Shown here: positions 30,524-33,101 of the stretch, piece after piece
Numbering within the stretch: position 1 is the first letter of the stretch
How the letters are laid out: each line of letters starts with the position of its first letter
From: Patescibacteria group bacterium
GTDB taxonomy: Bacteria > Patescibacteriota > Dojkabacteria > J137
Assembly (NCBI GenBank): GCA_963169855.1
Contig: CAUJCN010000001.1
Location: 17,828 to 81,827, forward strand
Length of the DNA: 64,000 nt
Reading direction: 5' to 3'
The notes under the pieces: generated by a model
What the model saw: only the letters and a program-made list of their open reading frames with translations
Databases searched by the model: none
What the model was told of the DNA's origin: nothing
Position numbers and translations under genes: made by a program

Positions 30524-30793
30524 CTTCAAATATTCCTAAAAAGGACTTTTACTTTGTAGAAGCCTTTTCTACACCATTTTCATCAAAATTTACCGATTTT
30601 TATAATTTAGACGCCTTTTGTCTAAATTCCTCCCAATATTGGACATTTACTGTCAAGAAAGAATCTCCCTTTAAAAATACAATCCTAGTAATCCTTTAAT
30701 CACAAACAAATTGAAGGGTATAGAAACCCGATGAGCTTTAAAACTTTCGGGGAGCACATTAAAAACTGAAGAGTGTTTATGAGTTACTGCTCA

Positions 30794-30808
30794 ATGTGAC
30801 AGTCACAT
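30794..30808. promoter_or_regulatory. perfect 15-bp palindrome atgtgacagtcacat in the leader of the GC-rich kinase-vWA operon (candidate operator)
   Basis: Seen directly, ~110 bp upstream of ATG 30919. Confidence 0.35.
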
Positions 30809-30918
30809 TTTGAAGATTAAGTCTTTAGAACGTGGCTGTTACACAAAACGAATGTGTCTAACGACCAAGCGTTCTGAGTAATATCCATAAACTTGTATAG
30901 CAAACGGAGGATCAAGAC

Positions 30919-31840
30919 CATGGAACTCGCCATCATTCCAGTAACGGAAGAAGGCAAAGAATCCACCCCAGCTCTACGGAGCATGGGTGCGTTCGAAGGT
31001 GCAACCGGTACCTACGAGCTTTTCACCTCGGCGGACGGCAATCCTATGGTCGCAACCGACCACTGGAAGCTGTACGTCGCCAAGTCGCCCACTGGGCAGC
31101 TTGGTCTGATGAAAATCTCCACGACCGGCAGCAACTACCTGCTCGAGGCAGAAGCGCAGAAGCTGCAGATCCTGCAGCAGATCGCCGCTGACCTCGACGC
31201 ACAGGCAACTGCGGAAGGCAAAGCCCCATTCAATTACGGGGCGTTCTTCCCGCAGGTCACCGAAGTCGTCCACACCGATGACGGTCGCGTGGCACTGATG
31301 CTCGGCTACCACGCCAGCATCGCCACCTACCGTCAACTGCTTCCCTTGGCACTCGTGCTCAAGGGACAGCGCATCGACATGAAGTCGGCGACATGGCTGT
31401 TCGGCAAGCTTCTCAAGCTGCTGAATTTCGTCCATGACGTCGGCTACACTGCTGGGTTCGTCGACATCACGAACCTCTTCATCGAGCCTGACCTCCACGG
31501 CGTGTTCGTGCTGGACTTCTCCAGCGCGAGCGAAACGCCCATGGACTCGGAGCAGATCAAAGAGGTCACCGACGCTGGACTCATCGTCTGGCACGCAGTC
31601 GGTGGTCGTGACGAGAAGACCCCTGAGCCAAACCCGCCGTTCGACGAAGACTTGATGACTCGCGATCAATACGAGACGTACAAGAGCTTCATCGCGCGCG
31701 TGGGTCGCGGCGGAAGCAAAGGGGCTGGACTGGAACACACGGCGCTTTACACGCTGTCGGATTCCATCTGGCCGAAGAAGGAAGTTGCGCCCGGCATTAT
31801 CAAGCGCGATTTCCACTCGTTCGTCACCTACGACCTGTAA
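30919..31840 (+). CDS. atypical protein-kinase-like/HipA-CtkA-like fold protein (GC-rich island 2)
   Basis: Start at ATG 30919 behind GGAGG. FVHDVGYTAGFVDITNLFIEPDLHGVFVLDFSSA resembles the catalytic-loop and DFG region of Kdo/RIO/HipA-type kinases. ~61% GC. Confidence 0.45.
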
Positions 31841-31876
31841 GACAACACAACACAAGTTCACAAGGAGATCCACAAC

Positions 31877-32986
31877 ATGGCCCGTACTTCTGATGTCGCG
31901 ACGTTCAGCAGCGAAAAACACGCCGAAACCGTCAGCAAGATGCGTGAACGCCGCGAGGCAGTTCATGCGGCTGGCGAAGACGTCTACCGTCGCACCGGCA
32001 AGCTTCACGAAAACGTGGACATCCACGGCAAGAAGCGCGTTTCGCGCAACAGCATGACCAAGAATGCCGACGGCACGTTCACCCTCAAAAACGGCGTCGC
32101 CCTCCCTATCCTGTCGCAATTCGACGGGACCGGTAGCATGGGCGGCAACGTCGAGAAAGCGTTCAATGCCATCCCGGTGTTCGATACCATGCTGGGCAGC
32201 GTCCGCACCCGGTACAACACGCAGATCGCCACCGGCGTGATGCAAGACGTCGTCGACCGCCACCCGGTTTTCCAGATGTCGCAGTTCGAAAGCGATAATC
32301 GCTTCGCCGAACAGATGCGCTATCTGGTTCCGGACAAAGGCGGCGGCGACAGCACCGAAGACTACGATCTCGGCCTTGCCTATTTGATGGGCGGCGTCGA
32401 GACCGACATCTTCAACTTCTACGGCCTCAAAGGCTATGCGTTCCTCGTGGCCGACGAGATCGGTCGCGGAAACGTCACCGCCTCAAGCGCCAAGGAGCAT
32501 CTCGGCCTCAACATGCAGAACATGTCCACCAAGGACATCTGCACGAAGATCGTTGAGCGCTGGCACCAGTTCTACATTCATGTGGGCGGTCGTGATGATC
32601 GCGCCACGGATTGGTGGAGCGATCGCCTCGGCGCCAATCGCATCGTCGTCGTCCCGGATCCCGACTTCCTCGCGGAAGTGCAGGCCGGCCTGATTTACGT
32701 GACCGAAACGTTGCAGCCCGACGAGCGCGGCTTCATCAATTTCATCACGGTCGGCGGTGCGAATCGTCGCATTTCGCCGAGCGAAGCGTCGAAGGTCTGG
32801 AAATGGCTGCAAAGCGTCCAGACGCTCTTCGGTGCGCAGGCGAAGCTTCCGAACTTCAACTCCATCCCGATGCCGGGCAGCATCTTCGCGGACTATCGGG
32901 ATCGTCTGCCCAGTGGCGTCACCTCGACCAGCATCACGAAACCGGAAACCGGACTCGCGAAGAAATTCGACTGGTCGAACTTCTAA
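31877..32986 (+). CDS. von Willebrand factor A (vWA) domain protein with MIDAS motif
   Basis: LSQFDGTGSMGG (DxTGS MIDAS) about 90 aa from the N-terminus. RBS AAGGAG. 369 aa. GC-rich. Confidence 0.55.
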   Translation: MARTSDVATFSSEKHAETVSKMRERREAVHAAGEDVYRRTGKLHENVDIHGKKRVSRNSMTKNADGTFTLKNGVALPILSQFDGTGSMGGNVEKAFNAIPVFDTMLGSVRTRYNTQIATGVMQDVVDRHPVFQMSQFESDNRFAEQMRYLVPDKGGGDSTEDYDLGLAYLMGGVETDIFNFYGLKGYAFLVADEIGRGNVTASSAKEHLGLNMQNMSTKDICTKIVERWHQFYIHVGGRDDRATDWWSDRLGANRIVVVPDPDFLAEVQAGLIYVTETLQPDERGFINFITVGGANRRISPSEASKVWKWLQSVQTLFGAQAKLPNFNSIPMPGSIFADYRDRLPSGVTSTSITKPETGLAKKFDWSNF

Positions 32987-33013
32987 CCTAAGCTATACAA
33001 ACTCTCCAGGAAT

Positions 33014-33037
33014 GGTGCGGGTATAGACTCCCGCACC
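33014..33037. terminator. hairpin ggtgcggg-tatagact-cccgcacc closing GC-rich island 2
   Basis: 8-bp GC stem immediately after the vWA stop. Weak T-tract. Confidence 0.45.
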
Positions 33038-33101
33038 ACCTCTTTCGATGTGTGTCGAAACTGACGAGTCCAAAAGGACGAAAGGAAATTATTAAATAAC
33101 T

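Follow-up and report, generated by a model that had tools for sequence, protein, structure and literature searches.

A GC-rich kinase-like and vWA gene pair of Patescibacteria belongs to a conserved module with a divergent adenylosuccinate synthetase-like gene

In the genome of a Patescibacteria group bacterium (GenBank assembly GCA_963169855.1), a GC-rich block encodes a protein of the Hanks-type protein kinase fold, g1, followed by a vWA protein with a metal ion-dependent adhesion site (MIDAS), g2. The block lies in the 64,000-nucleotide stretch of contig CAUJCN010000001.1 (positions 17,828 to 81,827) that was analysed here and is referred to as the window. Our work identifies g1 and g2 as the upstream half of a conserved module with the order (NUDIX)-kinase-like-vWA-PurA-like-NTase-like, in which PurA-like denotes a divergent ligase of the adenylosuccinate synthetase family and NTase-like a protein with a nucleotidyltransferase core. 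With moderate confidence, we propose that the block consists of two accessory or regulatory genes of a conserved nucleotide metabolism module. An initial annotation had described a two-gene architecture; this view was too narrow, since the PurA-like gene is a near-constant partner of g2 and the NTase-like and often a NUDIX gene complete the module. The folds are familiar, the combination is new and widely conserved: full-text searches for adenylosuccinate synthetase together with vWA, kinase, phage or Patescibacteria returned nothing that describes the module, and a vWA/MIDAS protein that is almost always encoded beside a divergent PurA-family ligase is new to the searchable literature.

Results

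About 70 loci from genomes, metagenomes and viral contigs (designated by L numbers) were fetched and surveyed by tblastn. In nearly all of those that were long enough to tell, g2 is located just 5' of the PurA-like gene. This adjacency was seen in Patescibacteria, in cluster C mycobacteriophages, in Vibrio and Rhizobium phages (the vWA homologue directly precedes the PurA-like gene in Vibrio phage phiKT1024 and Rhizobium phage RHph_TM30) and in phage-like contigs from gut and rumen; g2 stands directly before the PurA-like gene in the gut and rumen contigs L014-L025 and in the IMG/VR contigs L026, L027, L070 and L071. The Patescibacteria-type contigs have the order g1-g2-PurA-like-NTase-like, with the last gene on either strand and a NUDIX gene often nearby. 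More than 17 unrelated assemblies share this synteny, the position of the g1-g2 pair is constant across all related module loci, and every Patescibacteria-type locus of sufficient length has the NTase-like gene, in one orientation or the other, next to the PurA-like gene. The genes g1 and g2 occur together in Patescibacteria-type and in some phage loci. Divergent kinase-like/vWA/PurA-like trios are present as a second copy in L010, in L041, in L070 (a 408-kb IMG/VR contig that has an NTase-like gene, too), in L071 (a 134-kb phage contig) and in mycobacteriophage Dandelion. The closest relatives of g2 with a named source all come from Patescibacteria (Woesebacteria, Shapirobacteria, Parcubacteria), and in cellular Patescibacteria chromosomes the module is found beside housekeeping genes.

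Some loci show variations of this arrangement. The second trio of L010 (2974-6657) is phage-like and lies about 3 kb 5' of the main module of this locus. A distant branch, represented by L047, is without a kinase-like gene; an AAA+ ATPase (6092-8083) and a 335-aa protein (8283-9290) precede the vWA-PurA-like pair, an arrangement reminiscent of MoxR-vWA partnerships. In Vibrio phage phiKT1024 (L002), a TROVE (Ro60-like) gene (10416-11924) is located about 3.7 kb 3' of the vWA-PurA-like pair, possibly by coincidence; the cluster C mycobacteriophages are known to encode a Ro-like protein as well.

The folds of both proteins of the block are established at the level of predicted structures. For g2, the AlphaFold2 model (from an alignment of 64 homologues) reached a predicted local distance difference test (pLDDT) score of 94.7 and has a Rossmann-like vWA fold. 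The MIDAS, a predicted metal site, is complete: it consists of D83-G-T85-G-S87, T160 and D193, of which the first motif and D193 are invariant across the 64 homologues and T160 lies within the conserved GGDxTEDY. The vWA assignment originally made from a DxTGS motif, which reads DGTGS, is thus borne out by fold and conservation. No Pfam (E <= 0.1) or NCBIfam (E <= 0.01) family, the VWA families included, matches g2; its sole family match is PHROG 2971 (function unknown) at 2e-14. The AlphaFold2 model of g1 (from an alignment of 42 homologues, pLDDT 91.6) has a bilobal protein kinase fold. There was no Pfam Pkinase match at E <= 0.1 and no significant NCBIfam match, the PDB profile search gave only E ~0.3, to CK2, and PHROG 3043 ('kinase') matched at 4e-8. 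The motif FVHDVGYTAGFVDITN...VLDFSSA was confirmed in the sequence, and K65 (beta3 Lys), E78 (alphaC Glu), D182 (HRD-like Asp), N185 (catalytic-loop Asn) and D199 (DFG-like Asp) could be assigned. The catalytic-loop Asn is at +3 from the Asp rather than at +5, and there is no GxGxxG loop. Thus, g1 has a kinase fold with a partly degenerate catalytic loop and may or may not be an active kinase. The earlier description as an atypical kinase holds for the fold, the motif and the missing Gly-loop; its placement among Kdo/RIO/HipA-type kinases does not, since the nearest structural neighbours do not belong to these families. An exhaustive profile search revealed 232 cluster representatives of the g1 family at E <= 1e-10, which form two related tiers, one of about 310 aa that includes g1 and one of about 275 aa; additional N-terminal domains occur in some members. 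The members of the ~310-aa tier for which contigs were read are from Patescibacteria-type contigs.

The PurA-like protein matches Pfam PF00709 at 1e-45, which places it in the family, and PHROG 1211 at 9e-59; its best E-value for a PurA in the PDB is 1e-21, and no PurZ structure in the PDB matched at E <= 0.001. In NCBIfam, it scores 126 bits against PurA (cut-off 402) and 18.1 bits against PurZ (cut-off 300). For the residue comparison, E. coli PurA (1ade) served as the reference, with its sequence verified by means of the PDB alignment. Of the P-loop, G12, K16 and G17 are retained, as is the catalytic H41, and position 13 is acidic, with D13 replaced by Glu in the close Patescibacteria group. 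In contrast to E. coli PurA, N38Q, V273H, T301W and R305F are family-wide changes, T129 is replaced by V, I or C, Q224H occurs in the Patescibacteria group, R143 is lost and K331 is changed. In place of the aspartate-binding loop TTGRRRR, there is a loop in which W, G and F are conserved (DWLGEF in the window), and TKLD, which specifies guanine, reads SYLD in the window. The curated cut-offs and the residue comparison rule out that the partner gene is an ordinary purA or purZ. Judged from its residues, the protein is probably an active ligase that uses different substrates.

The NTase-like protein carries its minimal core inside a larger conserved protein, with G403, S404, D415 and D417 invariant. 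It matches Pfam Polbeta at 1e-5, just under the cut-off, all eight aligned homologues match Polbeta, and the PDB profile match is HI0073, the MNT of an MNT-HEPN pair (4e-4). For the NUDIX hydrolase, the nearest NCBIfam models are the ADPR-responsive NtrR and the NMNAT-Nudix families, all under cut-off. NUDIX genes near the module were also found in L005, L012 and L074, and NUDIX domains fused to an NrtR winged-helix domain in L072 (4111-4794) and in the rumen contig L016 (12523-13317). NAPRTase, NMNAT and NadE are encoded near the module in L073 (1-3291), and a phosphoribosyltransferase-like gene and a cytidylyltransferase near the vWA-PurA-like pair of a Rhizobium phage (L068, 2417-4083). These recurring neighbours related to NAD or ADP-ribose may hint at a link to the metabolism of these compounds or to its regulation.

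Table 1. Features of the module in the window and positions of the accessory g3-g4 pair in related loci (GC3, GC content at third codon positions)
Feature	Sequence	Coordinates	Strand	Remarks
NUDIX hydrolase	Window	30062-30523	+	153 aa; Pfam NUDIX 6e-25; GC3 0.21, host-like
Palindrome	Window	30793-30809		Perfect 8+1+8, AATGTGAC-A-GTCACATT; in the 396-nt AT-rich spacer 5' of g1
Shine-Dalgarno site of g1	Window	30906-30910		GGAGG, 9 nt 5' of the ATG (30920)
g1	Window	30920-31840	+	Hanks-type protein-kinase-fold protein, 306 aa; atypical shortened catalytic loop; GC3 0.75
g1-g2 gap	Window	31841-31876		36 bp
Shine-Dalgarno site of g2	Window	31862-31867		AAGGAG, 9 nt 5' of the ATG (31877)
g2	Window	31877-32986	+	vWA-domain protein, 369 aa; N-terminal and C-terminal helical extensions; GC3 0.79
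GC-rich hairpin	Window	33008-33041	+	22 nt past the g2 stop codon; core stem 33013-33038
PurA-like	Window	33102-34544	+	Divergent adenylosuccinate-synthetase-family ligase, 480 aa; GC3 0.16, host-like
NTase-like	Window	34511-36265	+	584 aa; minimal Pol-beta-type nucleotidyltransferase core G403-S404...D415-x-D417; 34-nt overlap with PurA-like
g3-g4 pair	L009	7385-8864
g3-g4 pair	L010	7069-8575
g3-g4 pair	L031	4116-5775
g3-g4 pair	L032	15374-16757
g3-g4 pair	L029	14632-16303
g3-g4 pair	L033	57-488
g3-g4 pair	L073	15584-16988		Probable

The g1-g2 block (30920-32986) has a GC content of 59%, as compared to about 0.36 for the whole window. In 300-nt windows, the GC content rises from 0.31-0.36 to 0.55-0.61 at about 30900-33000 and falls back afterwards, and the 1-kb windows in 31001-33000 have 0.59. 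The GC contents of g1 and g2 are 0.587 and 0.595, respectively, and their GC3 values exceed those of the 53 other open reading frames (ORFs) of at least 120 aa in the window (0.261 ± 0.038, maximum 0.36) by 12.8 and 13.9 standard deviations. The step is sharp at the gene edges: sliding GC3 values of 0.57-0.88 within the pair drop to 0.17 with the first codons of the following gene, and the NTase-like gene has a GC3 of 0.20. Codon usage is inverted, first-position synonymous choices included. The ratio of CGN to AGR codons for arginine is 33:0 in g1-g2 as compared to 33:166 in seven other window genes, and the ratio of CTN to TTR codons for leucine is 50:4 as compared to 221:271 in the same seven genes; C-ending and G-ending codons are both enriched. 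The GC-normalised dinucleotide signature (delta*) of the block is 0.171 as compared to 0.064 ± 0.025 (maximum 0.136) for 2-kb windows from the rest of the window sequence. The composition of the block is thus grossly atypical for the genome, just as had been noticed at first sight. The PurA-like gene has the lowest GC3 among the 56 window ORFs of at least 120 aa that were scored, so that the most GC-rich and the most AT-rich genes adjoin, 116 nt apart.

A second GC-rich block of the window, at about 2600-4600 (~58% GC), contains an ORF (2680-4572, plus strand; GC3 0.65, +10.3 standard deviations) with a likely start near 2863, a signal peptide or transmembrane segment, tandem PTVQPTTETP repeats and an extensin-like match under the cut-off. 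Its codon usage is similar to that of g1-g2 (relative synonymous codon usage, r = 0.72), its dinucleotide signature is not (delta* 0.154). In the relative L005, the top GC peak is likewise a Thr/Pro-rich secreted protein (14058-15074).

The two genes of the block are co-directional, as read directly from the sequence, and of the signals that had been ascribed to the pair, the Shine-Dalgarno sites, the palindrome and the hairpin are all present (see Table 1). An upstream TTG at 30893 is possible as an alternative start of g1; independent gene callers took the ATG. The palindrome, a possible operator by its sequence, is unexceptional as an RNA fold (z = -1.0). The hairpin folds at -25.1 kcal/mol (z = -3.8; 1 of 200 shuffles equally stable), with nine pairs in the core stem, eight of them G-C. 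It lacks a canonical U-tract, and the consensus terminator scan made no call there; the hairpin is likely to be a transcription unit boundary between g1-g2 and the PurA-like gene. No Rfam family matched in 30500-33150, even at E <= 1, so that neither the 396-nt leader nor the spacer between g2 and the PurA-like gene was found to carry a known regulatory RNA or riboswitch. An antisense ORF of 429 aa (30974-32263) was rejected as a by-product of the high GC content: for the genes on the plus strand, 146 and 43 homologues were found and the predicted folds are confident.

The GC excess is not specific for the window. All 17 Patescibacteria-type loci that were compared carry the pair in its conserved position, and in each of them the GC3 of g1 and g2 is higher than that of the adjacent PurA-like and NTase-like genes. 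A sign test on the first 14 loci gave 1.2e-4; for all 17, simple arithmetic gives 2 x 0.5^17 (two-sided, ~1.5e-5) if the loci are taken as independent, which is optimistic given the sister pairs among them. The excess varies between loci, with extremes of about +0.05 (L009 and L010) and +0.6 (the window). In 7 of 13 loci, g1-g2 is the highest-GC kilobase of the fetched stretch, with z >= 5 in six, and several of the other GC peaks correspond to an accessory gene pair, g3-g4. Housekeeping genes of the related loci (AsnRS, SerRS, SecA, GDH) have a flank-like GC3. Since this is so and since C- and G-ending codons are both enriched in g1-g2, expression-linked codon bias is unlikely to be the cause. 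The g3-g4 pair accompanies the module in many Patescibacteria and is GC-elevated, too; it was looked for in the window and is absent there. The g3 protein has about 330-360 aa, with an N-terminal region that by eye resembles helix-hairpin-helix domains, and g4 has about 150-175 aa; no Pfam or PHROG family matches either protein.

In neighbour-joining trees, well-supported sister pairs are common to g1-g2 and the PurA-like gene. The window and L005 are sisters for g1 (bootstrap 97%), g2 (45-58%) and the PurA-like protein (87%), and L007 and L012 for all three (100%, 100% and 95%, respectively). L010 and L029 group together for g2 (94%) and PurA-like (73%), as do L009 and L033 (91% and 79%).

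The initial annotation had regarded the block as horizontally acquired, possibly from a donor of high GC content, for instance an actinobacterial host, and as a candidate defence module. In 5.8 billion protein clusters, the best homologues of g2 and g1 are 61% and 54% identical in BLASTP (64% and 55% in MAFFT alignments); their contigs, where read, have Patescibacteria-type gene content, and no high-GC or actinobacterial donor was present among the clusters. Likewise, no Patescibacteria-type g1-g2 copy in a ~60% GC background was found among the loci examined, and known phages gave no DNA-level match to the block. There are no tRNA genes in the 64-kb window, and no integrase or transposase family matched among the scanned neighbouring genes. 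Two att-like flanking repeats, D19 (15 nt, 13 matches, 30716/33019) and I2 (25 nt, 80%, 30724/33192), are at chance level, as about 1-4 are expected in 2.9 kb by our own estimate. In PADLOC-DB v2, g1, g2 and the PurA-like protein had no match, so that no known anti-phage defence system was recognised; the NTase-like and NUDIX proteins gave only weak generic candidate-system matches, and there is no defence gene neighbourhood. The gene content of the window is cellular: pyruvate:ferredoxin oxidoreductase, ABC transporters, an ADP-forming acetyl-CoA-synthetase-type protein, peptide deformylase and an RHS toxin are encoded here. Finally, at least four sequencing runs (ERR10655377, -79, -80 and -85; contigs L064, of 84.6 kb, L065, which spans NUDIX-g1-g2-PurA-like, L066 and L067) independently yielded the same protein and both junctions between AT-rich and GC-rich DNA, and the block is therefore not chimeric.

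Discussion

In the mechanism that we propose, the core of the module would be formed by the vWA/MIDAS protein g2 and the divergent adenylosuccinate synthetase-like ligase, the gene of the former being directly 5' of that of the latter. In Patescibacteria and in some large phages, the vWA gene of this core is preceded by g1; the NTase-like gene comes after the ligase, and a NUDIX gene is often near. The PurA-like protein keeps the phosphoryl transfer machinery, i. e. the P-loop lysine, the catalytic histidine and the Asp/Glu base, and is therefore predicted to activate the purine 6-oxo group: the 6-oxo group of a purine nucleotide would be activated by a nucleoside triphosphate and then replaced by an amine. 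Since the aspartate-binding loop and part of the guanine-specifying residues are rebuilt, the substrates are probably unlike those of the housekeeping PurA. The vWA protein would be an obligate partner that binds the PurA-like protein, or its substrate or product, via the MIDAS metal site, and the kinase-fold protein and the nucleotidyltransferase may modify or gate the ligase-vWA complex. The kinase-vWA pairs TerY-P and ArnB/ArnC-D work by such modification or gating. Biologically, the module might serve to convert or re-aminate purine nucleotides. Host nucleotide pools are known to be reshaped by large phages. The Patescibacteria have been reported to be without known nucleotide biosynthesis pathways (PMC12455944). 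The physical interaction, the substrates and the direction of the regulation are all predicted from sequence, and we consider the evidence for and against the scheme as a whole to be about balanced.

The second part of our reading concerns the composition. The GC elevation in all 17 loci and the shared sister pairs imply that a single recent import is not the simplest explanation. In our reading, for which we have moderate confidence, the high GC content is a recurrent trait of the g1-g2 pair across Patescibacteria and not the sign of a recent import from a high-GC host. The cause would be either a force acting on the transcription unit or repeated replacement from GC-richer relatives.

Several observations speak against one or the other part of this interpretation. 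(i) The Asp equivalent to D182 is present in only 26 of the 42 g1 homologues (N185 is invariant); together with the atypical Asp-Asn spacing, this suggests that part of the g1 family may be pseudokinases, and the idea that a kinase regulates the vWA protein may be wrong. (ii) Many phage versions of the module have neither g1 nor the NTase-like gene, so these two are dispensable for the core function. (iii) In L029, g1-g2 is AT-rich (GC3 0.28/0.26), and the existence of such lineages indicates that a high GC content is not required for function. (iv) In its deeper groupings, the neighbour-joining tree of g2 clusters by GC content, partly in conflict with the PurA-like tree, as might result from exchange or from compositional attraction. 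(v) The sharp edges, inverted codons and deviant dinucleotides of the window are what a recent transfer looks like. (vi) There is no close sampled relative (the nearest PurA-like protein is 62% identical), and an unsampled GC-rich donor may therefore exist.

The strongest competing explanation addresses only the composition, and we consider it possible though doubtful: g1-g2, and also g3-g4, may have been replaced repeatedly from GC-richer Patescibacteria or phages and may then have ameliorated, with the window carrying a very recent replacement. The gradation of the GC3 excess is what differing ages of amelioration would produce, the codon usage of the pair in the window is like that of an ordinary genome of ~60% GC, and its dinucleotide signature is an outlier. 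In addition, the g2 proteins of the window, L005, L028 and L003 are mutually closer than their PurA-like proteins, L031 and L032 are sisters in g1 and the PurA-like protein but not in g2, and most of the transfers detected in Patescibacteria are between Patescibacteria (PMC12455944). However, the shift is upward in every single locus, even on backgrounds of 45-52% GC, no Patescibacteria-type pair that matches a ~60% GC background was found, so that no donor class is seen, the supported sister pairs are common to the PurA-like gene, and each replacement would have required a swap exactly at the operon edges.

The idea that in many Patescibacteria lineages the g1-g2 operon and the g3-g4 pair of its relatives are actively kept far more GC-rich than the genome by a force on the transcription unit and not by transfer is unlikely in our view. 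One candidate force would be selection for an mRNA that can be expressed or remains stable under a shortage of A/U nucleotides or in the presence of an active RNase with a preference for AU; another would be a recombination hotspot with strongly biased gene conversion. Equally speculative is the corollary that such a 'composition-insulated' operon would be the control unit of a new vWA-dependent purine nucleotide ligase shared with large phages.

With respect to function, the module could be a phage-type pathway for the modification of bases in DNA or nucleotides, analogous to PurZ, in which the PurA-like enzyme makes a non-canonical purine and the other proteins are helpers. The enzyme groups with PHROG 1211, the label of which is derived from PurZ-type enzymes, its catalytic residues are conserved and those for substrate binding altered, large phages with nucleotide metabolism clusters commonly carry the module, and pool-cleaning NUDIX hydrolases are frequent neighbours. 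We nevertheless judge this idea to be improbable, given the score far below the PurZ cut-off and the missing PurZ structure match. Genes for partners of the DatZ, MazZ and DpoZ type are not annotated in the phage stretches read, in which no systematic search for them was made, a study of PurZ neighbourhoods lists other partners and mentions neither a vWA protein nor a kinase (10.1101/2025.10.22.683976), and the module is also present in cellular Patescibacteria chromosomes.

The view of the block as a recent self-contained two-gene island from a high-GC donor, e. g. an actinobacterial host, that encodes a novel kinase and vWA system for defence or host interaction, has become very improbable. 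Its starting point stands: the composition step is extreme and sharp-edged, both genes are equipped with Shine-Dalgarno sites and g2 is followed by a hairpin, the second GC-rich block shows that the genome holds compositionally odd segments, distant homologues of g1 and g2 occur in phages of the high-GC Mycobacterium, and horizontal gene transfer is reported to be frequent in Patescibacteria (PMC12455944). The conclusions drawn from it are weakened by several findings. The best homologues are from Patescibacteria wherever a source is named, whereas the mycobacteriophage proteins are 27% identical; the pair occupies its place in a conserved module, the AT-rich PurA-like gene of which has the same nearest relative, L005; and the pair is GC-elevated throughout the related loci. 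Neither hallmarks of mobility (tRNA genes, integrases or transposases, repeats above chance) nor a defence context were detected where we looked for them. The actinobacterial origin finds no support, and the proposed defence role was not substantiated. An assembly chimera or contaminant join, which the abrupt GC change resembles, can be dismissed in view of the independently assembled junctions (L064-L067) and of the synteny in unrelated assemblies.

The closest homologous system to the module is the gp267-gp270 run of Dandelion and related cluster C (Bixzunavirus) mycobacteriophages, which is uncharacterised beyond sequence-based names. In Dandelion, gp267 (kinase), gp268 (vWA homologue), gp269 and gp270 (PurA) follow each other, and the trio has the same order as in the window. 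In tblastn against the phage collection, g1 and g2 hit cluster C mycobacteriophages with E-values of 4e-5 to 6e-5 and of 7e-7, respectively; in a search of the fetched loci alone, the E-values were 8e-8 (g1), 1e-10 (g2) and 1e-58 (PurA-like). The systems differ in several respects: the phage proteins are only 27-32% identical to those of the window, gp267 passes Pfam Pkinase (35.6 bits vs 31.7), with a weak N-terminal DnaJ-like match, while g1 does not pass, there is an extra 88-aa gene between the vWA and PurA genes and no NTase-like gene, and the phage trio shares the GC content of the phage (GC3 0.80-0.89, whole genes) without an internal compositional step.

For PurA, PurZ and TerY-P alike, at least one defining test spoke against an assignment of the module. 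The PurA-like protein shares the Pfam family and the catalytic residues with E. coli PurA, but not the substrate-binding ones, and it is near-constantly paired with a vWA gene. Housekeeping purA genes are not known to be paired in this way. PurZ, like the PurA-like protein, is a phage-borne enzyme of the PurA family with altered substrate specificity, but it is separated from it by the scores and structure matches given above, and its known partners DatZ, MazZ and DpoZ differ from those seen here (10.1101/2025.10.22.683976). In the TerY-P triads, a vWA/MIDAS protein is likewise genetically coupled to a Hanks-type kinase, which makes them a plausible model of how g1 and g2 may cooperate. As Anantharaman, Iyer and Aravind are said to have described in 2012, these triads consist of the vWA protein TerY, a Ser/Thr kinase and a PP2C phosphatase. 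In contrast, no PP2C is encoded among the genes scanned between 25990 and 36265 or listed beside the pair in related loci, the constant partner is the PurA-like enzyme, and there is no sequence-level family match. In Sulfolobus, the vWA protein ArnB acts with the kinases ArnC and ArnD and an FHA/zinc-ribbon partner in the regulation of archaeal motility; this system has no nucleotide metabolism enzyme and no detectable sequence relationship to the module.

Next to PurA and PurZ, the module may represent a third branch of the PurA family in terms of function. Since culturable phages carry it (cluster C mycobacteriophages as well as phages of Vibrio and Rhizobium), it is experimentally tractable. 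For the users of island callers, our work is a caution: a textbook signature of foreign DNA was found on genes at a conserved position that share their nearest relative with a host-like neighbour. A GC3 excess that is specific for one gene pair and present in all 17 lineages is unusual, and may reflect the serial replacement of alleles or a force that acts locally on a single transcription unit. Each of these causes, if true, would say something new on genome evolution in very AT-rich, reduced bacteria.

Other observations in the window

Two adjacent AT-rich ORFs on the minus strand, 28371-29495 (374 aa) and 29508-29900 (130 aa), are without a family match. The longer one shows a kinase-like HGD...N...FDY motif by eye; it was rejected as an AT-rich paralogue of g1, as BLASTP revealed no similarity and no family matched. 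The window also carries two APH-type phosphotransferases (6901-7932 and 17644-18579). Finally, a 2659-aa RHS/Tc-toxin-like protein with CBM96, FG-GAP, SpvB and TcdB domains (40352-48331, minus strand) and a 1551-aa protein with an endosialidase chaperone (Peptidase_S74) domain (56221-60876, minus strand) are candidates for contact-dependent or surface factors of this small-genome bacterium.

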